NCBI GenBank assembly: GCA_026394595.1
Contig: JAPKXX010000045.1
Coordinates: 4,024 to 68,023, forward strand
DNA length: 64,000 nucleotides
Source of the DNA: Methanoregula sp.
GTDB taxonomy: Archaea > Halobacteriota > Methanomicrobia > Methanomicrobiales > Methanospirillaceae
Reading direction: 5' to 3'
The notes under the pieces are model-generated. The model was not told the origin of the DNA. It did no database searches and saw only the letters and a list, made by a program, of their open reading frames with translations. This document shows positions 7,330 through 64,000 of this stretch, piece by piece. The position numbers were made by a program, and so were the translations under genes. Position 1 is the first letter of the stretch. Each line of letters opens with the position of its first letter.

Positions 7330-7450
7330 TTTTAAATATCCTTTTTTAAAGGGATAATCACTCCCTGGTAATTTTTTCATTTCTCGCTTCCCTAATTGCG
7401 ATCGATTGTACAAGATACTCAATTAACTTTCACTCATTATTAAAAAAGAA

Positions 7451-7525
7451 CGGGCCTGGGGGGATTTGAACCCCCGACACCCGGGTTAGAAGCCCGGCGC
7501 TATGTCCAAGCTAAGCCACAAGCCC
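7451..7525 (-). tRNA. tRNA-Arg (anticodon TCT)
   Basis: The reverse complement folds by hand into a cloverleaf. Acceptor stem is GGGCTTG/CAGGCCC, anticodon stem CCGGG/CCCGG with loop CTTCTAA, and T arm GGGGG-TTCAAAT-CCCCC. Discriminator is G and no CCA is encoded. Confidence 0.85.
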
Positions 7526-7617
7526 CGACGCCTATTAGATTCGTATTCTGGGATAATTAAGGTGTGTCCTGCCCGGGTCACTTATAAAAAGAACGTGCTG
7601 AACACCCGGAATTTTTT

Positions 7618-7902
7618 TCATTTCTTGCTTCTCTCTATGGTCTCTTTCATGCGGTCAGCTTTTTCCTTGATCTGCCGGATCCTGCTGTCAGTACTTGCTG
7701 AATCGGCATGGGTCAGTCCGAACCATATCGAAGCGCACCCGACACCAAAGATCGCAATCGAGATAATAACATTATTTGGATTACTAGGAAAGATGCCAAA
7801 CATGGCTGTGGCAAAGAGCACCAGCACGATTCCGGCATAGGGAATCATCCACTCAAAGGACTTTTGATCTTTTTTTTCTCCAGATGATACCTCTTTTACC
7901 AT
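7618..7902 (-). CDS. Small hypothetical membrane protein
   Basis: 94-aa ORF with two hydrophobic stretches (IPYAGIVLVLFATAMFGIF, IAIFGVGCASIWFGL). I recognise no family. Confidence 0.4.
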   Translation of the reverse strand: MVKEVSSGEKKDQKSFEWMIPYAGIVLVLFATAMFGIFPSNPNNVIISIAIFGVGCASIWFGLTHADSASTDSRIRQIKEKADRMKETIERSKK

Positions 7903-52924: not shown

Positions 52925-52941
52925 CAGTACTTCCGAAAGTA
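52925..52941 (+). repeat. 17-nt element end CAGTACTTCCGAAAGTA (left copy)
   Basis: It has an exact inverted match at 55255-55271. Its first 13 nt also match the tips at 55277 and 63811. Confidence 0.8.
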
Positions 52942-53089
52942 GACTAATCGGTGACTATTGTGGCTTTCTAAAAAAATATATCTTGTGATATACGATATTC
53001 TCAATCTATAGGATAGGTGATGATAATGGGACTTCGATTAATAATAAAAACAAAAAACAAGGTTCAACAGACCGGATTAATGAAGATAT

Positions 53090-53887
53090 TTGATGTGGTT
53101 TGGGATTGGGGATCGGAACGATCCGATGGTTGTCGGGACAAAACCACAAAAAGGAACAACCTGGGCGTTTAGATTTGCGACACTGATGATTATCGAAGAC
53201 AATTGCCGGTTGACAATCAAAGCGATACCGGTTAGTGAAATCACTTCGAAAACTGATGTTGTCGCCGAACTTTTGAACTATGCGAAGGAAAGGATCAAGA
53301 TTGGGGTTGTCTGTATTGATCGCGGGTTCTATTCAGTCGAAGTTCTCTCGACTGTAGAAGGAATGGGCCTGAAGTACCTAATACCTGCTGTCAATACTCC
53401 TAAAATTAAATGGATAACACGAGCAAAAGAGCCCCCTCAGATTATTCCATATACAATGGGATCTAAAGAGAGACAGATCTCAACCAAACTTGTGATCATT
53501 CTCGATAAGAATATGGAAAAGAGGAATTTTGTTACTAATCTGGATATAGACAGAATGCATACCCGAAAGTTGAATGAGATATACAGCAAGCGGTGGGGGA
53601 TTGAAGCAAGCTATCGGGTAAAGAAGGATTTCCGATCAAAAACCACGTCTAAAAACTATATTATTAGGCTGTTCTATTTCCTTCTCTCCGTTTGTCTCTA
53701 TAATCTCTGGGAGATAGTGAATATCATCTTAGCAGTATTAGACCAGGTTGGATCCAAAATACCCATTATCACGGCCAAATTGTTTGGGACAATATTATTC
53801 CGTGTCTTTGAGTTGAGCGGGATAGGGCCACCACCTGATACCGCGCCTAAAAAATGTGAGGATATTCAAACGACCCTCAATTTATAA
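53090..53887 (+). pseudogene. 5'-truncated DDE transposase (same family as 56609-57826)
   Basis: It aligns by eye with residues ~155-405 of the full-length copy (GDRNDPMVVGTKPQ..., YSKRWGIEASYR, ...IQTTLNL) and lacks the N-terminal ~150 aa. A degenerate copy of the 59-nt IR appears to follow the stop (~53889-53919). Confidence 0.8.
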
Positions 53888-53919
53888 TTGAATCTGAAGC
53901 ATCAGGGAATCGGCGGGTT

Positions 53920-54147
53920 GACCTCGGTGAAGAAACCGTAGATTCTATTTTGCTTTATGCTTGTAACAAACCGATTTTTGTTATTGACGCATACACAAAA
54001 AGAATTTTTTCGCGGTATGGATTTTTTGAAGAAAAAGCAAAATACCGAGAAATTCAAAATTTTTTTATGAGTCATCTTCCAAAGGATGCGATTTTATATA
54101 ACGATTTTCATGCACAAATTGTTCATCTAGGAAATGCGATTTGTAAA
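53920..54147 (+). pseudogene. Endonuclease III-related (HhH-GPD, COG2231-like) gene remnant
   Basis: It reads DLGEETVDSILLYACNKPIFVIDAYTKRIFSRYG...[17 protein letters not shown]. This matches the HhH/GIGxETADSILLYA...VDxYTxR...HGKxxC region. It lacks both the N-terminal half and the C-terminal Cys cluster. Confidence 0.55.
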
Positions 54148-55125
54148 TTGGGGCATCATCCCACGGACTTCTTTCCCGACTTCCTCAATAAGGTGTTCTT
54201 CATCGGCTTTGGTTAGTGCGGTGAAAACAGGACGGTTGACCATATTCTCAAGCATCCATTCCCGGGCAAACTTGCCGGATTGGATCTCTGCGAGAATTTC
54301 CTGCATCGCCTCATAGGCTTCCGGTCCGATGACGCGGGGGCCCCGGGTGAGGTCGCCATACTGTGCCGTATTGCTGATAGACTGGCGCATGTTGGTGAGC
54401 CCGCCTTCGTATATAAGGTCGACGATTAACTTCAGCTCGTGAAGTACCTCAAGGTATGCCATCTCCGGTTCGTACCCGGCATCGACAAGCGTCTCAAAAC
54501 CCGCCTTCACAAGAGATGTGCAGCCACCGCAGAGGACTGCCTGTTCGCCGAAGAGGTCCGTCTCGGTCTCTTCGCGGAATGAGGTCTCAAGTACGACCGC
54601 ACGGGTCGCCCCGATTGCTTTTGCATACGCAAGCGCAATTTTGTGGGCATTCCCGGTATAATCCTGATGGATTGCAATAAGTGCGGGCACTCCCTTGCCT
54701 TCTTCATACTGGCGGCGGACCATAGAACCGGGTCCCTTAGGTGCGACCATGATAACGTCAACGGTTGGCGGAGGTACGATCTGGCCAAAGTGTATGTTGA
54801 ACCCGTGGGAGAACATAAGGCACTTCTTGTCCGAGAGATGGGGCATGATCTCGCTCTTGTAAACTGCTGCCTGATGTTCATCAGGAAGGAGGATCTGGAT
54901 AATATCAGCCTTTTTTACTGCCTCGGCAACCGCCATCACCTTCATACCGTCTTTGACCGCTGCGTCCCAGCTCTTCCCCGGCCGGAGACCGATCACCACA
55001 TTAAGCCCGCTGTCCTTAAGGTTAAGAGACTGCCCGCGCCCCTGTGAGCCATAGCCGATCACAGCTATGCGCTTCTCCTTCAGCACCGAGAGATCCGCAT
55101 CTGCTTCATAATATTTTTTTAACAT
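54127..55125 (-). CDS. ilvC: Ketol-acid reductoisomerase (class I)
   Basis: 332 aa with [18 protein letters not shown] and the full KARI knotted domain. Composition is core-like and GC-rich, in contrast to its AT-rich flanks. Confidence 0.95.
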
Positions 55126-55254
55126 GGTGTATCACTTGATATTCATTTTAGAGAGTACATAAATAGGATAGTCGAATTGGTTCGTTTACACAAATTGTAA
55201 ATTTTTTTGACAACTGCAATTGCAATACCCCAAAATAATTTTATCGAATGATAT

Positions 55255-55271
55255 TACTTTCGGAAGTACTG
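55255..55271 (-). repeat. 17-nt element end CAGTACTTCCGAAAGTA (right, inverted copy)
   Basis: It is the exact reverse complement of 52925-52941. Confidence 0.8.
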
Positions 55272-55289
55272 GACAACAGTACTTCCGAA
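55259..55289. repeat. Perfect 13-5-13 palindrome formed by two element tips head-to-head
   Basis: TTCGGAAGTACTG-GACAA-CAGTACTTCCGAA. Confidence 0.9.
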
Positions 55290-55330
55290 TATCTCGTCAG
55301 ACGACGGGATTGCATTTTTTACGGATCTTG
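55277..55330 (+). repeat. Outer terminal inverted repeat, left
   Basis: CAGTACTTCCGAATATCTCGTCAGACGACG-8 nt-TTTTTTACGGATCTTG. Its partner is at 63758-63811. Patchy similarity continues inward, including ATGGCGGGACTTT at 55365-55377. Confidence 0.85.
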
Positions 55331-55528
55331 AGCGTGGAAAATTGTTCCGATACGGTTCTGTTGCATGGCGGGACTTTGAAGCCCTAAACAAAAAGGATTG
55401 TGATACTTTTGCGGTTCTTTGATTCAAAATGGAAAACTGATGTGTGGCAATTGGTGGCTGGTGGAACTAAGAAAATATATATCCTCATAAAAAATATTGC
55501 TGTAAAAAGAGCAAGTAGTTGTAACAAT

Positions 55529-56023
55529 ATGGCTGAGCTGGTGGAACTCAGTTCATTTATCAATTTCTTACATAAAGAAATTGAATTTAATTTCAATTTG
55601 AATAGTTTTGACTGTAGATTTCGATTGCAAAAATTTGTTTTTTTAGCCAAATTTTTCGGATGGCATAATGATTATTCTTATGGTATTTATTTGAGGGGGC
55701 CATATTCGCAAGACTTGGCTGCTCATTATTATTCTTTCAAAAAAATTGACATTAGATCCGTCCCCACAATCGAATTGACTACATTCGATAAAAAGGCTTT
55801 TCTTAATCTAATTAGGAATAAAGAGGATTTATGGCTTGAAGCAGCTGCAACAATCATATCAATGATGGATAGTTATAAGGTCCATTATAAGGGAGATGAT
55901 TTAAAAACCAAAGTCTTGGAGCGAGTGATTGATTTAAAAGACGAGATTCCAAGATCTGTTATAAATACGGTATACCAAGATTTATCAAGTGCGGGAATTT
56001 TTTCAAATATTGTAAAAGCATGA
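55529..56023 (+). CDS. Panacea/DUF4065-like (SocA/GepA-type) putative antitoxin
   Basis: The start is taken at the ATG at 55529. The sequence FRLQKFVFLAKFFGWHNDYSYGIYLRGPYSQDLAAHYY resembles the KLQKLLY...GP(Y/V)S core of DUF4065. It overlaps the next gene by 4 nt (ATGA). Confidence 0.5.
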   Translation: MAELVELSSFINFLHKEIEFNFNLNSFDCRFRLQKFVFLAKFFGWHNDYSYGIYLRGPYSQDLAAHYYSFKKIDIRSVPTIELTTFDKKAFLNLIRNKEDLWLEAAATIISMMDSYKVHYKGDDLKTKVLERVIDLKDEIPRSVINTVYQDLSSAGIFSNIVKA

Positions 56024-56526
56024 GAGATCCACCTCGGCATGTTCATATTGACACTCAATATCTATATGCATATGTAGTCTCCCGTGGTCATGATGAAGAA
56101 TCTGAAAGGAAAAAACAGATACAAGAGTTGATCCATAATAAAAACCCAAATGTGAAGGCAATAATCTCATTTACAGCCGTTGGAGAAACCTTTAACGAAA
56201 TAAATGAAAAAATTACGCATCCAAGAGAGCGAAGACGGGCGATAAACGAATTTATTGATTTATTATCTGAAAAAAGAGTTGATTTGAAACCGGCTAATGA
56301 ATCGACATTTAAAATAGCTCATAAGATAAAAAAAGAAGACCCACGATTAGACGATACTGATATTTTGATAGTTTCACAAGCAATATGTGATAAACTGGCA
56401 TATTTGGTGTTGTTTCAAGATAGTAAAATCATAGAATCAGAGGTAATAAAAGATTATTGCGTAAATAGAACAAATAAGGATGGTTATGAGTGTGTTTTAA
56501 AAATTAAAGAAAATTATTCTCGATAA
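56020..56526 (+). CDS. PIN-like nuclease-domain protein (putative toxin)
   Basis: The acidic residues are spaced as in PIN domains: HIDTQYL, AVGETF, LDDTDILIVSQAI, LFQDSKI. Confidence 0.5.
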   Translation: MRDPPRHVHIDTQYLYAYVVSRGHDEESERKKQIQELIHNKNPNVKAIISFTAVGETFNEINEKITHPRERRRAINEFIDLLSEKRVDLKPANESTFKIAHKIKKEDPRLDDTDILIVSQAICDKLAYLVLFQDSKIIESEVIKDYCVNRTNKDGYECVLKIKENYSR

Positions 56527-56585
56527 TTATTTTATAGCCGCCAATCCGATCATCGTTTCCCATCAGATTGATCGGGATGTTTGCC
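56527..56585 (+). repeat. Inner 59-nt inverted repeat, left copy
   Basis: It matches the reverse complement of 61154-61212 at 54 of 59 positions, with a 39-nt perfect core at 56540-56578. It contains an internal hairpin CCGATCA...TGATCGG. Confidence 0.9.
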
Positions 56586-56608
56586 GAAATGCGCGCATGA
56601 GGATTCGG

Positions 56609-57826
56609 TTACAAATTGAGAGTTGTTTGTATAGCCCTCCGTTTTTTAGGAACTCTATTATGAGGTGGAGGGCCCGTTCCTATTATTTCAAACACATGGA
56701 ATAGCGCCTTTCCAAACAACAGAGCCGTGATGAAAGGTACTTTCTTAACAACCTGCTCTGATTTGGACAGAATGATATTGACCAATTCCCATAAGTTGTA
56801 AAGACAGACGCTGAAAAAGAAATAAAATAGTCGTATAATGTAATTTTTCGACGTTGTTTTTGGTCTGAACCCATTTATAACCCTATAAGACGTCTCTATC
56901 CCCCATCTCTTTTTGTATAATTGTGGAATACGATGAGCTGAGAGACGAGATACATTTAAATTCGTAATAAAAGCTATCTTTTTACCGTCTTTATCATACG
57001 TGATAACAACGTTGGTGAGGATATTTTTTTCTGTGGTTCCTATACGATAATTATTAATGATTTTTGGTGCTTCGTGTTGCCGAAGTAATTTTTTAATTCT
57101 TGGATTGAGAGTGGCAGGCATTATGTAATGAATATCCATATTATTTAACATCGAAATGACATCAATTGAGAAAAAACCTCGGTCAAGATATACATTGTTG
57201 ATGTTGATCCTGGCTTTCGCATAACTCACTAATTCGTGTACGATTTCTTTTCTTGATATGACTCCATCAACAGGAACCGTTTTGATAGTTAATCTGCAAT
57301 CTTCATCTACTATAGTCAAAGTGGCAAATCTGTATGCTTTAGATGTCCCTCGCTGTGGTTTGGTTCCGACAACCATCGGATCATTTCGATCTCCATAGTA
57401 AAGTTGGTCGGTTGCATCGACTGCAATATCAACTTTACCTCTTAAGAATCCATTCTTCTTTGCTATTGTGATGATTTCATCAATAGCTGATTCGAATCCT
57501 GATATGAGCTCTTGGGGTTCAAATTTTTTCAAATGATACAGGAGTGTGTCAGCATTTGGACAGCCGTTACGCGAATCAATGATTAGGCTCTGTGAACTCC
57601 CCTCCGCGAAATAATTATGAATTCCTGTATACGTTAGCAATTTCAAATAATCATTTTGGGTATATTTGCGCGTATAGGGAATTTTGAGTTTAATATTTGG
57701 CAGCAGAACCTTTTTCGTAAGTTGCCATATTTTTCCTGTCCAACGGCTCCGCTTATTGCTAATAGATTTATTACTTTTAACGCCTTGATCCTTTACTGCG
57801 GAGTTGGTTGCTTTCACAGGTACCAC
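56609..57826 (-). CDS. DDE transposase (IS4/IS5-superfamily type, possibly ISH3-like)
   Basis: 405 aa with AVDATD, YLDRGF and YKKRWGIETSYRVINGFRPK (the Y-R-E-K-type signature). The start is GTG. A paralogous truncated copy is at 53090-53887. Confidence 0.85.
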   Translation of the reverse strand: MVPVKATNSAVKDQGVKSNKSISNKRSRWTGKIWQLTKKVLLPNIKLKIPYTRKYTQNDYLKLLTYTGIHNYFAEGSSQSLIIDSRNGCPNADTLLYHLKKFEPQELISGFESAIDEIITIAKKNGFLRGKVDIAVDATDQLYYGDRNDPMVVGTKPQRGTSKAYRFATLTIVDEDCRLTIKTVPVDGVISRKEIVHELVSYAKARININNVYLDRGFFSIDVISMLNNMDIHYIMPATLNPRIKKLLRQHEAPKIINNYRIGTTEKNILTNVVITYDKDGKKIAFITNLNVSRLSAHRIPQLYKKRWGIETSYRVINGFRPKTTSKNYIIRLFYFFFSVCLYNLWELVNIILSKSEQVVKKVPFITALLFGKALFHVFEIIGTGPPPHNRVPKKRRAIQTTLNL

Positions 57827-58010
57827 TCTTGCACAGGAGGGCGACTTTCGACGGCTGTCCTCCTGTTTTACTTCTATTTGAGTTATAAGTATTTAGACGG
57901 TGTTATACACTTATCACCTTATACACATACACACATAAAGTATTTATTTATTGTGGTTAAGGGGAAAACCATATAAAGCGAGGAGAGCATTATAATATTT
58001 GAGGACAAGT

Positions 58011-58223
58011 ATGGGTAGAATCGATGTTATCCTTCCAGATGACCTTGAAGAAGAGTTCAGAATGGAGGTCGCCAAAGAACTGGGAATGAGAAGAGGTAAC
58101 CTGACCATAGCGTTACACGAAGCGATCAAATTATGGATAGAAACACATCAACAGAGAAGAAGCGAGATCGCAAAAAAAGCATGGGCAACAAGAAAGGAGA
58201 AAAGGGGGGAAGACAATCTTTAA
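58011..58223 (+). CDS. Ribbon-helix-helix (CopG/Arc-like) DNA-binding protein
   Basis: The ATG is at 58011. The product starts MGRIDVILPDDLEEEFRMEVAKELGMRRGNLTIALHEAIKLW, which fits a beta-strand - helix - helix layout. Confidence 0.6.
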   Translation: MGRIDVILPDDLEEEFRMEVAKELGMRRGNLTIALHEAIKLWIETHQQRRSEIAKKAWATRKEKRGEDNL

Positions 58224-58326
58224 AGAATAATTAATATTAATCACAAAAGTTTTTATTTTCACCCTGCGAGCGACAGATCAATATACAATCAACTTCATAT
58301 ACTTTTTTAAATTGGAGAGATGCTAA

Positions 58327-59097
58327 ATGCAAAGTTGCCAGGTATTTTTGAAAGAAAACCGGCCTAAAATATCAATAATATACGAACCGCGAGGAAAAGC
58401 AAGAGAATATTGTGAATTAGCAGCAAATCTCTACCGGGGATGCAGCCATCGCTGCACTTATTGTTACGCTCCTGCAACCCTATATATGTCAAGAGAAGAA
58501 TTTTGCAGACCGAGTGTTAGAATAGATGTCATAAATAAATTTGAAAAGGATGCTACTATATTAGAGAGAATTGGTGAAAAGCGTCCGATTTTATTATCCT
58601 TCACTACTGATCCCTATCAACCGCTTGATATCAAGGAACAACTCACAAGAAAAGCGATTCAAATATTACATAGACATGGATTAAAGGTTTCAATTCTAAC
58701 GAAAGGCGGCAGACGTTCAGAAAGAGATTTTGATCTGCTATCGAAACATCCAGAATTGAGTGAATACGGGGCCACTTTGGTTTTTACTGATGAAAAGTAT
58801 AGAAAAGAGATTGAGAGCGGGGCAGCACCAACAAAAGAGAGGATAGATTCAATTAAGAAAGCGCATGATATGGGGATTTTTACTGATGTATCGCTTGAAC
58901 CTGTATGGATACCTGAACAAAGCCTTGAATTAATCGATTTAACAAAAGATTTTGTTGATTTTTATAAAGTTGGGAAATTAAATTATGATATTCAGGAGAA
59001 AACAATCAATTGGAAGGAATTTAAGAATGATGTTATTAAAAAACTAAAAGATTATGGAAAGAAATATTATATCAAAAAAGATCTACAAAACTATTGA
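58327..59097 (+). CDS. Radical SAM protein, SplB/COG1533 (DNA-photolyase-like) type
   Basis: It has CSHRCTYCY (CxxxCxxC) at residues ~39-47, then SFTTDPYQPLDIKEQLTRKAIQIL and ILTKG, as in the SplB-like rSAM group. GGAGAG lies upstream. Confidence 0.8.
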   Translation: MQSCQVFLKENRPKISIIYEPRGKAREYCELAANLYRGCSHRCTYCYAPATLYMSREEFCRPSVRIDVINKFEKDATILERIGEKRPILLSFTTDPYQPLDIKEQLTRKAIQILHRHGLKVSILTKGGRRSERDFDLLSKHPELSEYGATLVFTDEKYRKEIESGAAPTKERIDSIKKAHDMGIFTDVSLEPVWIPEQSLELIDLTKDFVDFYKVGKLNYDIQEKTINWKEFKNDVIKKLKDYGKKYYIKKDLQNY

Positions 59098-59117
59098 AAA
59101 ACTTGTAAGATACATTT

Positions 59118-60214
59118 ATGCCACTTCCGACTATTTGGTCTATTGAACCCCATACAGAAGCTAAACACAGAATTCTGGAAGAATATTTAAAAGCATGGTT
59201 CCCTATCCTATCGAGATTTCATAAACGAATCTTATATATTGACGGTTTTGCCGGTCCAGGGGTATACGAAGAAGGTGAAATTGGTTCACCGATAATTGCT
59301 CTTCAATGTTTGTTAGAACATAAGCATAAGTTATACCAAAGATCCGTAGAATTTAATTTTTTTTTATTGAGAAGGACAGGGAAAGAGCTGAGATACTTGA
59401 TCGAACTATAAAAGAAAGATTTCCTGATTTGCCAAAAAATGTTCAATATGGTGTTTATCCTGCCGATTTTGAAGCAGCTATGAGTGATATATTAGATAAC
59501 CTCGATAAAGAAAAAAAGCGTCTTGCTCCCACATTTGCATTTATCGATCCATTTGGGTATAGCGGATTGCCATTTTATTTAATACGGAAAATTCTCTCAT
59601 TCCCTCATTGCGAAGTTTTCATAAATTTTGCTTATAGTTCAATCAATCGATTTATAGATACTGAAGATAGTAGAACAGAAATTTTTGACAGTTTATTTGA
59701 AACATCCAAATGGCGTAAGATTAGGGAGATAAATGATCCGACAGAGCGAAACCGACAATTAGTTTCACTTTATACTGTTCAGTTGAAAACTGCTTCGAGA
59801 TATGTCAGATCGTTTGAAATGGAAGATAATGTCGGTAGAATCTCATACTATCTTTTCTTTGCTACAAATCACGTCAAGGGATTCGTAGAGATGAAAAGCG
59901 CGATGTGGCGGGTAGATTCAAGAGGTTCATTCCGTTTTGCTGATACAACAGATACCGATCAAAGATTTTTGTTAGACTTTGATAAAACCTCCTGATACCA
60001 AAATCAAGCCGAATTTCTTTATCAGCATTTTGCCGGAGATACCGTAACAGGAAAAACCGTGATGGATTTTTGTGAAGAAGATACAGGATTCCCGACCCGT
60101 TGGTCTAAAAGTTTAAAAATTTTAGAGACTTCCCAACAAATAACTGTGACAAATAGAGAGAGAAGAGGGATTTATCCCCCCGGATGTGAGATCACATTTA
60201 AAAGGCTTAATTAA
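59118..60214 (+). pseudogene. tcmP: TcmP-like (three-Cys-motif partner protein family) gene, disrupted by a poly-T frameshift and an in-frame TGA
   Basis: The N-terminal reads WSIEPHTEAKHRILEEYLKAW...LYIDGFAGPGVY. The frame shifts in the T9 run at 59357-59365. It continues FFFIEKDRERAEILDRTIKERFPDLPKNV...FAFIDPFGY to the TGA at 59993-59995. The same frame then stays open (YQNQAEFLYQHFAG...CEITFKRLN) to the TAA at 60212-60214. Confidence 0.6.
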
Positions 60215-60624
60215 AAGAGAATAATCGACATTCTTACAGATATCCCTTGTATTACGGAGATGATTGATTATAGGAATTGTAAAAAGAGGTCTTAAAAATG
60301 AAATGCGAATACTGTGACAAAGAAATGGATGCCAATGACCCAAATTATGCTAAAAGTAACATTCACTACGATTGTGCAACCAAGCTTTTTTTTAAAATTC
60401 TATATCAGAAAGTTACGTAACTTTCTATAGTAAGATGAATATACAGGGGGCATAGAATTCTGCTATAGAAATCTCAAAACTTACCTTCTGCACACATTTA
60501 ACCTATTAAAAATATCAGAAGCGCATTACCAACCACGTGCTAGCGTAATTAACCGTAGACGAATCAGAAACCGAATTAGAATAATAATAAATATTGCATT
60601 ATCTTAGTTCTTCTCGATGTAGTT

Positions 60625-61065
60625 ATGCCAAAGGTCCAAAGTAATTTAGTTGAGAAATGTCTGCGGGATTTGTTGAGAGAGAGAGATTATAAAATGAATG
60701 AGATCCGCGGTAATGGAGAGACGGGAGTGGATATTGAGGCGAGAAAGGGTGATAATGTCTTTCATATTGAGGTGATTAGTTATAAGAAGAAAGGTCCGGC
60801 GAGATCTAAAGATTTTTTCCAGGTTTTTTTCAGAGCCATTTCACGATTAAATGATGGTGCTACCCATTGTGTCATTGCATTACCACTCGAATTTGAAACA
60901 GGATTGCCAAAAAGAGTCAAACAATATAAAATTGCTTGGGAAAGAATTGGTAATGTTTTTCCAGAATTGGAAATATGGTTAGTTGATCCTGAAAGTAAAA
61001 AGTGTAAACGTACCAAATGGATAGAGTGGCTTGATACCCTAGTCCAAGGTCTGGTAGTATCATAG
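60625..61065 (+). CDS. Small PD-(D/E)XK nuclease-fold-like protein (putative)
   Basis: 146 aa. The sequence GETGVDIEARKGDNVFHIEVISYKKKG fits a D...E-x-K-type core as in Hjc/Mrr-like nucleases. It is convergent with the methyltransferase. Confidence 0.4.
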   Translation: MPKVQSNLVEKCLRDLLRERDYKMNEIRGNGETGVDIEARKGDNVFHIEVISYKKKGPARSKDFFQVFFRAISRLNDGATHCVIALPLEFETGLPKRVKQYKIAWERIGNVFPELEIWLVDPESKKCKRTKWIEWLDTLVQGLVVS

Positions 61066-61153
61066 GTCTGACGGTTGCAGCGGCGGGTTTGTTTACTGCG
61101 GGTGGATGTGCCCGGTGTGCGGGATGATGCAAAAGGATTAATCCCGCACAGAT

Positions 61154-61212
61154 GGCAATTATCCCGATCAATCTGATGGGAAACGATGATCGGATTGGCA
61201 TCAATAAAATAA
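61154..61212 (-). repeat. Inner 59-nt inverted repeat, right copy
   Basis: It is the reverse complement of 56527-56585 (54 of 59). It lies 3 nt beyond the methyltransferase stop codon. An adjacent GC hairpin GCGGGAT/ATCCCGC is at 61119-61147. Confidence 0.9.
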
Positions 61213-61215
61213 ATT

Positions 61216-62769
61216 TTAAATTTGTAATTCCGCTTGTTTCTCTAATTTCATTTGTTCTAATAATAGAGATAATTTATTAAAATCAGATATTTTTGGTTTC
61301 TTCCGACCATGCATCTGAGTAAAAAACTTATCGAGATCCTTATAGTATATGAACTTCCATCCATATTGATGAATTTCATCACTAAACTTACGCTCTCGAA
61401 GTTTACGATTTAAGAGTGGTTTTCGTTCTTCTGGTATGATAATAATACGATTCAGACCATCAACATTGAGATTAGATCCGCGATCTATTGCCTCACTAAT
61501 ACCTGTTGTATTTTCAACTTCAAACTCATATTTTGGTTGACCATTTTTGAGCCAGATTGCATCAATTTCCTTAACTCGATCTGGATTATCACAATCAAAA
61601 GGTAATGATTTTACACGTCTCCCTGTTATATCAGCAATTACATCAAATCCAAATTTTTCTCCTATTTGAGCAATATAATCAACCATTATATCGTGTTGAC
61701 TGATCCTGATAGATACTGATTGTTTAAGTTTCCACTTTTTATCATCTGTTTTTTCAGCGTAATCGTTTAAAACTTCTTGAATTGTTGTTGTTTCTGGGGT
61801 TAAAGCATTGGGAAAATGAATGTAAACCTCTTGGAGGATTTCATCAAAACCTAGCTGGATCTCACGATTAAGTGCATTAATAACAACTTTTTCAACACGT
61901 TCTTTTAACGGGACTCTATCAATATACGGTACAATTGCTGGATCAGCAAACCACAATTTTTCGTCAACAATTACAAACTCTTTTCCAATATGTTTATTCA
62001 AAACGTCATCTATCGATTGTGATGCCGAAAAGAGAAAACCCTCTTGCTTAAGCCGGTCGTAAATATCTGAGTAACTATTGACAATTAACGAGTATTCTGT
62101 TGGTTGCCCCCTCTCAGCAATTATCCTTTTTATAGTCTCTACAACAACTCGTTCAAATGTAACTATGTCGGGTTGTTTTATTTTAGATGTGTCACGGGGT
62201 TGTGAGGGTTTTTTAAATCTTATATAATAATCACCAAAAGCACTACCATAAGGTGCGAGTTGTGATTTTGGGGACTTGCGAGCTGGGGGTTGATAAATAA
62301 TTTTTTCCAAATCAAAACCAGCTAAAATGCATGCTCGAATTATATCATTATATATTTCCATTTTCGCGTTGTTGAAAGTAATCGTTAGGTATTTTGAAGG
62401 TTTCAATACCCGATAGATTTCACGAAATGCTTTTGCTAGGAGTGTATAATATGTTTTATTATTCTTATCCTTCCGAACTGGACTATCACTAATACATATC
62501 TCTTCATCAAAGTCTGGTTTAAAACCCAACCAAGATGCCCACATATAATTAAGTTCAAGATATGGAACATTATCACCATAGGGAGGATCAGTAAATACGT
62601 AATCTATACTATTCTCTTTTAATTCTGGTATTGAATTTAAGTCGGTAGCAGAATGTGTATAGATTTTAAAATTATTATCTGAATATTTTGAAGAAAGAAG
62701 TTTATTTGATTCTTCTTTCCCTTTTACCAATTTCTCAAATTTATTTCTAAAAAAACGCCAAACATTCAT
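61216..62769 (-). CDS. DNA methyltransferase, C-terminal ORF (motif IV DPPY plus large C-terminal region)
   Basis: It contains IDYVFTDPPYGDNVPY. The C-terminal ~130 aa (EIDAIWLKNGQPKYEFEVENTT) look nuclease-fold-like. It is in the same frame as 62776-63573, separated only by TGA-TAT-GAA. Confidence 0.75.
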   Translation of the reverse strand: MNVWRFFRNKFEKLVKGKEESNKLLSSKYSDNNFKIYTHSATDLNSIPELKENSIDYVFTDPPYGDNVPYLELNYMWASWLGFKPDFDEEICISDSPVRKDKNNKTYYTLLAKAFREIYRVLKPSKYLTITFNNAKMEIYNDIIRACILAGFDLEKIIYQPPARKSPKSQLAPYGSAFGDYYIRFKKPSQPRDTSKIKQPDIVTFERVVVETIKRIIAERGQPTEYSLIVNSYSDIYDRLKQEGFLFSASQSIDDVLNKHIGKEFVIVDEKLWFADPAIVPYIDRVPLKERVEKVVINALNREIQLGFDEILQEVYIHFPNALTPETTTIQEVLNDYAEKTDDKKWKLKQSVSIRISQHDIMVDYIAQIGEKFGFDVIADITGRRVKSLPFDCDNPDRVKEIDAIWLKNGQPKYEFEVENTTGISEAIDRGSNLNVDGLNRIIIIPEERKPLLNRKLRERKFSDEIHQYGWKFIYYKDLDKFFTQMHGRKKPKISDFNKLSLLLEQMKLEKQAELQI

Positions 62770-62775
62770 TTCATA

Positions 62776-63573
62776 TCAATTGGGAGGAATCCAATAACCT
62801 CTTACTTTCCAACCCGGACCTTGCCCTGGAGTATAAACAAGCAATTTGGAAGCTTGGGGAAGCGCAGCAGAAAAAGCGAATTTCATCATATTGCGGATAT
62901 CTGTATCGTGAATTTTGTTGATTCTATTGAACAGAATTGAGAGTGCTATAAGATTTCGCTTGCTGAAAAGATCAGATACTTTTGTACCTTTTGCGATGTT
63001 TACTCTAGTATTCCAAATTAGCTCGTTTTTGGGATACCAATAAGGTATTTTCTTTTTTTCAATATCAGTAATTTTTTTTATGTCTGTGGTTGTTAAATCC
63101 TTGATACCTTTATCCTTACAATTTCCATTTTCACATTCATAGGCAATCTTATTGGGTTTGTTATTCGAATATGTGATATAATAAATTATAGCATCATTGC
63201 GACATTTTGGGCAAGAGGTTTTAAAATAACTTAAAATTTCATCTTTTACATCGGTCTCAATTTTTGTAAATTCTTTTTTCAAACTGGTGATACTTATAGG
63301 CAACGCAGTTAAAGATGCAATAAAGTTTCCAACCTGATCAAGATCAACACCAATTGCTTTGCGTCCCAATCCGAGAGCTTCAATCGCTGTTACACCTGAT
63401 CCAGAAAACGGGTCAAGGACGATATCACCCTTTTTGGAATAATGTTCGATATATGTTGCAACAACATTGTCTGGTTTTCTAGCCCAATATTTGTGAATAT
63501 TATACATTGGAGGATGAAGGCGAGCAACCAATGCATGATTAATATGTGAGATTGATTCACTTTTCGCTTTCAT
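62776..63573 (-). CDS. DNA methyltransferase, N-terminal ORF (SAM motif I plus zinc ribbon)
   Basis: It contains KYWARKP...VLDPFSGSGVTAIEA (FxGxG) and CPKC...CENGNC. It ends at the TGA at 62776-62778, in frame with the downstream ORF. Confidence 0.75.
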   Translation of the reverse strand: MKAKSESISHINHALVARLHPPMYNIHKYWARKPDNVVATYIEHYSKKGDIVLDPFSGSGVTAIEALGLGRKAIGVDLDQVGNFIASLTALPISITSLKKEFTKIETDVKDEILSYFKTSCPKCRNDAIIYYITYSNNKPNKIAYECENGNCKDKGIKDLTTTDIKKITDIEKKKIPYWYPKNELIWNTRVNIAKGTKVSDLFSKRNLIALSILFNRINKIHDTDIRNMMKFAFSAALPQASKLLVYTPGQGPGWKVRGYWIPPN

Positions 63574-63757
63574 TCAAAATCACTTGTCCTTTTGATGTAT
63601 TTACAACATTATAAATGAAAAACCAACCGATTTAAAACTTGAAAAGTCCCGCCATTTATCAGCGCGATCAAAATAGCGCGAAGTCCCGCGAAGTTATCAG
63701 AACCCAAAAAGGGGAGAATTAAATAAGTGGAAGATTCACCCCCATCCGCCACTATAC

Positions 63758-63811
63758 CAAGATCCGTAAAAAACACAGGTTCGTCGTCTGACGAGATATT
63801 CGGAGGTACTG
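63758..63811 (-). repeat. Outer terminal inverted repeat, right
   Basis: It is the reverse complement of 55277-55330 with 7 mismatches. Two GCGGGACTT-type subterminal motifs lie at 63643-63655 and 63681-63690. Confidence 0.85.
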
Positions 63812-64000
63812 GACAAATACCTTCTTGACGGTATAAACTGCCGGCAGGTGTATAGTAGCGATACCGACTCTCTCAGATGGATCCCGGAACTTATTGCTCA
63901 TCATCGGGGGAACATTCCGTCGGCATTTCTATCAGATAAGATATTAATTGCCGATAATTTCGGCAATAAACTATTATAGATTTTTTTTCATGTAATTTTA

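Follow-up and report, generated by a model that had tools for sequence, protein, structure and literature searches.

A probable 8.5-kb ISH3-type cargo transposon in a Methanoregula contig and the apparent origin of its internal 59-nt inverted repeats

DDE transposons with cargo are a familiar sight in bacteria, whereas archaeal examples have hardly been documented. Insertion sequences (IS) of the ISH3 family have been described as passenger-free units of 1,225-1,500 bp with CRGT termini and 4-5-bp target duplications (De Palmenaer et al. 2008, PMC2266710). According to the same work, passenger genes were reported only for the IS231 group, and its modular layout was unseen in other subgroups and in related families. 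ISfinder holds a single passenger-carrying member of the IS6 family, ISDsp3 (Varani et al. 2021, PMC7986276), and the membership of archaeal representatives in that family has been questioned (Harmer and Hall, PMC6807381). No archaeal case passed the filter in a study of mobile restriction-modification units (Furuta et al. 2010, PMC2853133), and according to a 2019 survey (PMC6563490) composite cargo transposons had not been detected in archaea. A 2025 preprint describes in its abstract Tn7-family elements across archaeal groups, and a 2026 archaeal IS census (PMC13343696) does not use the word 'passenger'. We came across no account of ISH3-type cargo transposons in the literature searched, which is not proof of their absence. 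Here we analyse a 64,000-nt stretch of a Methanoregula sp. assembly (GCA_026394595.1, contig JAPKXX010000045.1, positions 4,024 to 68,023; hereafter the window), in which an earlier note had described a transposase gene and several passenger genes enclosed by 59-nt inverted repeats. We propose, with a probability of about 0.75, that positions 55277-63811 are one 8,535-bp ISH3-family DDE transposon of a Methanoregula-like archaeon.

The proposal rests on a pair of outer repeats that the earlier note had missed. The left terminal inverted repeat (55277-55330, forward strand; 'type 2', beginning CAGTACTTCCGAATATC) and the right one (63758-63811, reverse strand) are 54 nt long and agree at 47 of 54 positions. 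Both open with 5'-CAGTAC and fit the terminus consensus CRGT of the ISH3 family. They are flanked by identical 5-bp target-site duplications, GACAA, at 55272-55276 and 63812-63816, of which the left copy separates the transposon from the right end (55271) of a resident related element, element A. Alignment of the island edges in a second locus, L034/L038 (two views of the same contig), with the outer repeat of the window yields a common terminus, CAGTACTTCCGAA, pointing inward on both sides, and the same 13-nt terminus also delimits the elements of L001, L035, L036, L038, L039 and L041. The island has a G+C content of 35%, compared with 45-57% in the rest of the window. The transposon thus appears to end in the 54-nt outer repeats, at 55277 and 63811, next to the GACAA duplication, and not in the 59-mers to which the earlier note had assigned this role. 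Its suggestion that the element had landed between two convergent genes also has to be given up, since both the gene pair that includes the PIN gene and the methylase gene lie within the element.

The transposase gene (56609-57826, reverse strand) is apparently intact and encodes 405 aa. Its by far best NCBIfam match is transpos_ISH3 (E=1.4e-49; 169 bits, with a curated cut-off of 225), the score for Pfam DDE_Tnp_1 is 54.6 (cut-off 23), and the translation contains a Y-(2)-R-(3)-E-(3)-R variant of the YREK motif (YKKRWGIETSYR). The plain ISH3 format, with 1,225-1,500 bp and the transposase as sole gene, does not describe an element that measures 8,535 bp, has at least 8 further genes and is therefore a variant of the family and not a plain member. 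From left to right it comprises the outer repeat, a relic of an IS6-type terminal repeat, the open reading frame ORF207, a PIN gene, a left IS6 gene relic, the transposase, a ribbon-helix-helix (RHH) gene and a radical SAM gene, followed by a TcmP-like gene, an Mrr-like nuclease gene, a right IS6 gene relic, a methyltransferase gene, a second IS6 repeat relic and the outer repeat. Hence the cargo capture envisaged before holds in the sense that the transposase belongs to a unit far larger than a plain IS, together with the RHH, radical SAM, TcmP and nuclease genes, but not for a unit ending at 56527 and 61212.

Four other complete elements with CAGTACTTCCGAA ends and perfect 5-bp duplications, 3.2-12.9 kb long, were found by motif search: L038 1975-14860 (12,886 bp, TTTGC/TTTGC), L039 6880-12273 (5,394 bp, CGCTA/CGCTA), L041 6960-11842 (4,883 bp, GAATA/GAATA) and L001 12408-15632 (3,225 bp, TGGCC/TGGCC). 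An intact ISH3-type transposase plus cargo is present in three of the four, and only a degraded transposase in the remaining one. Cargo of the relatives includes a methylase with a BsaWI-like endonuclease, HNH and HEPN genes and an MmeI-like enzyme. Every CAGTAC-bounded element with both ends visible (n=6) has exactly one ISH3-type transposase or remnant of it, and in all eight loci with a visible downstream end the gene points at that end from a distance of 0.7-4.2 kb. Moreover, the end subtype tracks the transposase subfamily, type 2 occurring with the genes of the window and of L001, which share 88% aa identity, and type 1 with relatives at 51-62%. The L034/L038 transposase is just 55% identical to that of the window, yet it has the same neighbourhood: the RHH and radical SAM proteins are each 80% identical (aa) to their window counterparts and a TcmP-like gene is also present. 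L038 further shares with the window the inward-facing IS6 repeats and the outside flank.

Ends of neighbouring elements repeatedly face one another across a spacer of exactly 5 nt, at 55271/55277 in the window, 12402/12408 in L001, 5480/5486 in L035, 14860/14866 in L038 and 6954/6960 in L041, and form palindromes of ~31 nt. Such spacing points to insertion of new copies into the 5 bp beside a resident end. We had also considered the outer palindrome as IS200/IS605-like ends with subterminal hairpins; the idea was dropped, as the palindrome consists of two abutting element ends and their 5-nt spacer.

The resident element A (52925-55271, forward strand, 2,347 bp) has type-1 ends (CAGTACTTCCGAAAGTA) and flanking 5-mers, AACAA and GACAA, that agree at 4 of 5 positions. 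It contains a truncated ISH3-type transposase gene (53090-53887), a 25-nt IS6 gene fragment (53899-53923) and ilvC (54127-55125). The window ilvC clusters at 90% identity or more with Methanoregula sp. proteins, and elsewhere in Methanoregula the gene is located between GCHY-1 and eIF-2beta; its presence in element A could be due to gene capture or to rearrangement between elements. Synteny of ilvC revealed no empty site, as Methanoregula loci L028-L033 share with the window only ilvC itself (80-83% nucleotide identity). A possible unoccupied site did come from metagenomic runs, which were used as k=31 contigs; two of them, X1 and X2, are freshwater-sediment runs that contain the window. One contig of run X4 (6,372 nt) and one of X2 (285 nt) carry the right flank of the window at 92-97% identity without the 8.5-kb element. 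In both, GAAAA links the flank, from position 63817 on, directly to a type-1 end (...GAGTTAAACCTACT TTCGGAGGTACTG); this is how the site would look without the element, in a population related but not identical to that of the window.

What, then, are the 59-nt repeats? Their description is accurate: 56527-56585 and the reverse complement of 61154-61212 agree at 54 of 59 positions with a perfect run of 39 nt, the left copy lies 23 nt from the transposase stop codon (56609-56611), and both copies are located at gene stops, the left one abutting the PIN stop at 56526 and the right one 3 nt off the methylase stop at 61216. The 38-nt core has two exact occurrences in the window, a result obtained in 0 of 100 dinucleotide shuffles. 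In runs X1 and X2 the unitig with the 39-mer has ~1.5-2.5 times the depth of its flanks, so that the genome would hold about two copies of the core. By this measure the 59-mer is a two-copy sequence and not the dispersed intergenic repeat that the earlier note had held out as the contrary case. There is no target duplication outside the pair (TTCTCGATAA on the left and ATTTTAAATT on the right).

Judged by homology, each 59-mer is the last ~20 codons plus the stop of an IS6-like transposase gene rather than a transposon end. An exact search with a 30-nt core in genome and metagenome collections gave no match because the core carries a window-specific 11-nt deletion. A degenerate half-site pattern, on the other hand, matched 16 genomes, 9 of them Methanoregulaceae, and most of these nine matches correspond to the 3' end of a transposase reading frame (...PAQMANIPINLMGNRWETMIGLAVK and stop). 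The Methanoregulaceae loci comprise intact genes for 392-403 aa in five cases, 3' fragments in L011, L015 and L017, and a match at a contig end in L009. In tblastn comparisons with the five intact transposases both window copies fall at about aa 371-394, and the right one reaches back to aa 349; the matched stretches are aa 374-392 for the left copy and aa 349-392 for the right. Relic L (56527-56595, reverse strand; ~aa 371-394 plus stop), delimited by tblastn and an alignment of nine homologues, contains the left 59-mer and reaches local alignment scores of 53-71, the maximum for shuffled sequences being 31. Relic R (61080-61212, forward strand; ~aa 349-394 plus stop) contains the right 59-mer; here tblastn places 61080-61184 at aa 349-383 (54%) and 61177-61200, in another frame, at aa 385-392. 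Both relics read outward and terminate in the stop codon of the IS6-like gene. They also have in common the frameshifting 11-nt deletion, by which one GATGGGGAACN unit is gone that is kept in all nine homologues and in L021; likewise, GATGGGAAAC is present as a tandem pair in variant contigs of runs X3 and X4 and as a single unit in the window. The sequence after the truncated transposase paralogue in element A, previously taken for a degenerate 59-mer, does derive from the same foreign gene but from a different part of it (~aa 353-361).

The relics are accompanied by remains of IS6-like termini. A terminal repeat relic, GGTTCTGTTGCATGGCGGGACTTT, reads inward at 55354-55377 (forward strand), and the same motif bounds intact elements in L003, L004 and L013. 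On the other side, 63644-63704 (reverse strand; GGTTCTGATAACTTCGCGGGACTT..., also inward), found by motif search, shares 82.5% identity across 63 nt with the L004 element, at its end distal to the transposase. Since both the abutment on the PIN and methylase genes and the GGTTCTG... repeats match the layout of intact elements, we interpret each 59-mer as part of the right-hand fragment of an IS6-like passenger-carrying element. Such a fragment would consist of the IS6-like gene tail, then convergent cargo, then the GGTTCTG... terminal repeat. The 59-mers themselves are without demonstrated function.

Several other interpretations of the 59-mer were tried. The hairpin arms pointed out earlier, CCGATCA/TGATCGG, do exist in both copies, but their fold is no better than that of shuffled sequence (z-scores from +0.5 to -1.3); the arms are complementary in two of nine homologous sequences, and the stem is broken in the other seven with no compensating change. 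With no Rfam match at E<=1 either, a structured RNA or terminator was rejected. An integron attC site (a '59-base element'), suggested by the size and the position after gene stops, was dropped, since homology to coding sequence explains the repeat. A clustering of relic 5' limits at aa 345-352 turned out not to be interpretable, the true span being aa 315-371. Beside L001 and L002 we noticed IS6-like sequence that is striking by eye, but its score does not exceed that of shuffles. In a contig of run X3 a two-unit IS6 gene tail is joined to sequence resembling the right flank of the window (61200 to 63829, skipping 2,628 nt); the shorter side of this join is just 23 nt, so it may be due to chance.

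The intact IS6-like protein (394 aa) has N-terminal SWIM and zinc-ribbon parts and an IS6-type DDE domain, with 57 bits for Pfam DDE_Tnp_IS240 (cut-off 27); its best NCBIfam match, transpos_IS6, reaches 116 bits and stays under the cut-off of 125. The family is multicopy and comprises 921 clusters at E<=1e-10. Intact elements with GGTTCTG... ends and perfect 8-bp duplications occur at L003:1662-6114 (4.45 kb), L004:1156-4084 (2.9 kb) and L013:3120-7897 (4.8 kb); among the three, the duplications are GTTTGTAG, CTCAGAAT and ATTTTAGC, without regard to the order of loci. The ends typical of the IS6 family (PMC6807381), with GG at the start and G at position 7, are seen in all three and at window positions 55354 and 63704. 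The compact, passenger-free IS6 format (0.7-0.9 kb, up to 1.8 kb in long clades) is not: these elements measure 2.9-4.8 kb and carry SocA_Panacea toxin-antitoxin pairs and an MvaI/BcnI restriction-modification system. A convergent cargo gene that stops within a few nt of the IS6-like transposase stop, as seen in L003, L004 and L006, is the native layout. The IS6 relic repeats of the window lack an 8-bp duplication (TCCGATAC and CAAAAAGG), so the unit was not mobilised as an IS6 compound transposon. It is also worth mentioning that neighbouring IS6-like elements in L003 abut with the same 8-nt spacer, ATTTTAGC, and that one identical IS6-like transposase, P0154, occurs on more than 50 contigs (L022-L027 were looked at) in at least three upstream contexts. 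Its downstream cargo is variable (a 73-aa ORF with or without a 211-aa ORF); for this element the right end was found, and a left end could not be defined.

The second question concerns the part that the ISH3-type transposase shares with its closest copies. Copies with 80-91% nucleotide identity have in common a block of ~1.27 kb, from ~57869 down to 56588-56602, as delimited in L001, L002, L019, L020 and L021 (five contigs, four independent contexts). In the two copies examined, those of the window and L001, the block has an end inverted repeat of only 8 nt and no target duplication, and around the transposase alone (56480-58050) no inverted repeat exceeded the length expected by chance. From these comparisons we take the block for a conserved core common to cargo transposons and not for an IS in its own right. 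The closer left end in other transposase copies, which the earlier note had named as evidence contrary to its own reading, is thus present only formally, in that homology stops at ~57869 and 56588-56602.

At its 3' edge the block is joined to an IS6 gene tail, at ~aa 369, in the window, L021, an X3 contig, L034 and L035, so that the junction is common to transposases as far apart as 55% identity. In L034 the tail (aa 369-394) follows the transposase block directly and is 96% identical (aa) to the L003 transposase. Such a shared junction could be explained either by an old insertion with later spread or by a target preference. The junctions are located at 56588-56596 in the window, ~770 in L021, 4175-4180 in L034 and ~4150 in L035, with further sites at 53887-53899 in the window and ~4190 in L036; in L036 the block edge is occupied by an IS6 terminal repeat, and in the truncated window paralogue by a different IS6 piece. 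By eye, and not by computation, about 11 of 13 positions agree between the IS6 segment CATCAGGGAATCGG and CATGAGGATTCGG, the inverted terminus of the block.

Based on these data, it is possible to outline how the element may have arisen and moved. It probably inserted as a unit, with the 5-bp duplication GACAA, directly beside the end of element A. The transposase would bind the ~18-nt terminal repeats, cut at the CA/TG termini and join the ends to a 5-bp staggered cut in the target. Each arm of the transposon carries one of two IS6-like fragments in opposite orientation, which accounts for three mirrored landmarks, namely the outer repeat, the IS6 repeat and the 59-mer. From the 39-nt perfect core and the shared 11-nt deletion we infer common descent of the arms or gene conversion between them. 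An ancestral end module may have been duplicated inversely, or two related elements may have fused, with gene conversion acting later.

Not everything agrees with a simple unit transposon. The ends of the window element match over 54 nt, whereas those of other elements match over only 17-18 nt. IS6 relics are found in both arms, and the element may consequently be a composite of two end modules. For the L001 copy there is no upstream CAGTAC end within 9.9 kb. The block shared between copies extends over only ~1.27 kb and its flanks differ, which also fits a small IS nested in a larger shell. Finally, the contigs of the presumed unoccupied site are not identical to the window, one of them stops 12 nt into the resident end, and they may stem from a related strain or from a paralogous site. 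Of the explanations that build on such observations, one that we hold tentatively, at somewhat less than even odds, is that two related or two IS6-like elements came to lie head to head, lost their inner parts and now move on two 'right-end' modules. Three mirrored landmarks around unrelated cargo (outer repeat 47/54, an IS6 repeat per arm, 59-mer 54/59) speak for it, as does the limited end identity of other family members. The IS6-type repeats have no 8-bp duplication, however, and such a scenario describes the history of the same element, so it is compatible with the unit transposon and not a true alternative to it. A nested arrangement is unlikely. It would involve a free-standing 1.27-kb ISH3 IS (~56596-57865, with ends CAGGAGGA.../...TCCTCATG) inside a CAGTAC-ended shell that is moved in trans, in keeping with the sharp homology limits in five contigs from four independent contexts and with a short inverted match (CAGGAGGA/CATGAGGA; ...ACTCCTG in L034). 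Yet the block in the window and L001 is not flanked by a 4-5-bp duplication and its inverted repeat is just 8 nt, while six of six two-ended CAGTAC elements contain exactly one such gene in fixed orientation; the dependence of end subtype on transposase subfamily is not predicted by chance nesting. Our own interim view, in which the 1.27-kb IS was simply nested among IS6 relics, was overturned by L034/L038, L039 and L041.

The remaining two explanations return to the 59-mers. That they serve as recombination sites inverting the central 4.6-kb segment from transposase to nuclease seems improbable, although homologous recombination needs no more than the 39 nt of perfect inverted identity present here. 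In X1 and X2 the k=31 assembly is collapsed at the core and does not reveal the orientation of the segment; it nevertheless shows only the four expected contig arms and no extra junction contigs. Moreover, no recombinase domain was detected among the eleven main ORFs scanned (53.1-63.6 kb), the hairpin is unconserved, and inversion would have no obvious regulatory effect. Least credible of all, and in our opinion very improbable, is the original idea that the 59-nt repeats are termini of an ISH3-type IS with 3.3 kb of captured cargo, the mobile unit being 56527-61212. It could draw on the 59-mer-like sequence found after the transposase stop codon in several independent contigs (those of the window, L021, the X3 contig, L034/L038 and L035) and on the related fragment after the truncated paralogue. 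Against this, the 59-mer is the conserved C-terminal coding end, with stop, of a different transposase family, and in L034 the relic begins only after the end of the ISH3 block (...GACTCCTG). The 59-mer sequence is absent from L001/L020, L002, L039 and L041; positions 56527 and 61212 are not flanked by a target duplication; L038 has just one relic copy and still possesses full outer ends with the 5-bp duplication; and relic R extends to aa 349 with no ISH3 sequence next to it.

Taking the 8,535-bp transposon as our preferred reading, we turn to its cargo. The first arm holds ORF207 (55400-56023) and a PIN-like gene (56020-56526), both on the forward strand and recognised by motif and Pfam searches. 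The latter matches Pfam PIN with E=2e-4, below the curated cut-off, and ORF207 shares a 32-aa motif (E=5e-5) with a SocA_Panacea cargo protein of L006; judging from these similarities, the two are probably an antitoxin/toxin pair. The small RHH-like gene (58011-58223, forward strand; 80% aa identity to a 74-aa gene of L034/L038) is divergent from the transposase and starts 185 nt from its start, both in the window and in L034/L038. A small RHH, DUF2080, AbrB-like or unassigned gene is always found divergent from the transposase, ~130-185 nt upstream (L001 9659-9841; L035 2707-2871; L036 2597-2821; L039 9701-9865; L041 9704-9868), and may be the element's own regulator. Next come the radical SAM gene (58327-59097, forward strand; Pfam Radical_SAM E=1e-16; 80% aa identity to the L034/L038 homologue) and a disrupted TcmP-like gene (59118-60214, forward strand). 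TIGR04474 and PADLOC PDC-M30A, a candidate system, each match two ORFs of the latter, the match being split over two reading frames with many stops. The nuclease (60625-61065, forward strand) is a weak assignment, Pfam Mrr_cat (E=5e-4) being just under the cut-off. Window positions 60523-61154, with the nuclease and the start of relic R, are ~99% identical in contigs of X3 and X4, two unrelated sediment studies, in which the transposase is only ~90% identical and most other cargo is absent; this near-identity hints at a recent spread of the segment. The second arm contains a type II DNA methyltransferase gene (61216-63573, reverse strand; PADLOC MTase_II) split by an in-frame TGA at 62776-62778, the two pieces being in the same frame and matching positions 1-217 and 243-430 of one MTase_II model. 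Far from the element, a 30-nt direct repeat (7364-7393 and 7605-7634; 83%) brackets the only tRNA gene of the window, tRNA-Arg(TCT) at 7451-7525, and could be an integration scar.

We consider it fairly likely, though less so than the unit nature of the window element, that Methanoregulaceae carry an undescribed family of ISH3-type DDE cargo transposons of 3-13 kb, with 17-18-nt CAGTACTTCCGAA ends and 5-bp duplications, interleaved with a second, IS6-like cargo family. The ISH3-type elements would transfer restriction-modification, toxin-antitoxin, HNH and radical-SAM/TcmP modules and possibly even ilvC, and the two families together would act as autonomous DDE 'defence shuttles' in archaea. 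Taken as ends, the 59-nt repeats would mislead annotators, as they are fossils; in the corrected picture, an archaeal transposon of 8.5 kb has precisely placed ends, a target duplication and a presumed unoccupied site, together with four complete relatives. If the family does move defence genes among methanogen genomes, this bears on the formation of archaeal defence islands. It also bears on the failure of automated IS annotation, geared to units of ~1.3 kb, with such elements, and a transposase with 18-nt ends makes a compact system that might become a tool for methanogens.

Compared with known systems, the transposon resembles ISH3 insertion sequences in its DDE_Tnp_1 transposase, Y(2)R(3)E(3)R motif, CAGT termini, 5-bp duplication and archaeal host. 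It differs in that the elements described here extend over 3.2-12.9 kb (2,347 bp for element A), with cargo on both sides of the transposase and new copies abutting resident ends at exactly 5 nt. Extra DNA and passenger genes between the end and the transposase gene are also known from the IS231 group (IS4 family, Bacillus cereus group), which, however, is bacterial, belongs to another subgroup and generates ~10-bp duplications. The parent of the 59-mers is similar to IS6/IS26 in its DDE_Tnp_IS240 domain, GGnnCTG ends (G1, G2, G7) and 8-bp duplications, but its transposase of 394 aa has SWIM and zinc-ribbon parts and the elements reach 2.9-4.8 kb with cargo, compared with the classical 0.7-0.9 kb. 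Mirrored arms around a central segment and outer ends used for movement are reminiscent of the Tn10/Tn5 compound transposons, although here the arms are not complete IS copies, there is one transposase gene, and each arm carries different cargo. Finally, the restriction-modification units of Furuta et al. (2010, PMC2853133) likewise combine defence genes with imperfect inverted repeats, a short duplication and an empty site; those units, all bacterial, have no recognisable transposase, whereas the element described here has one on board.

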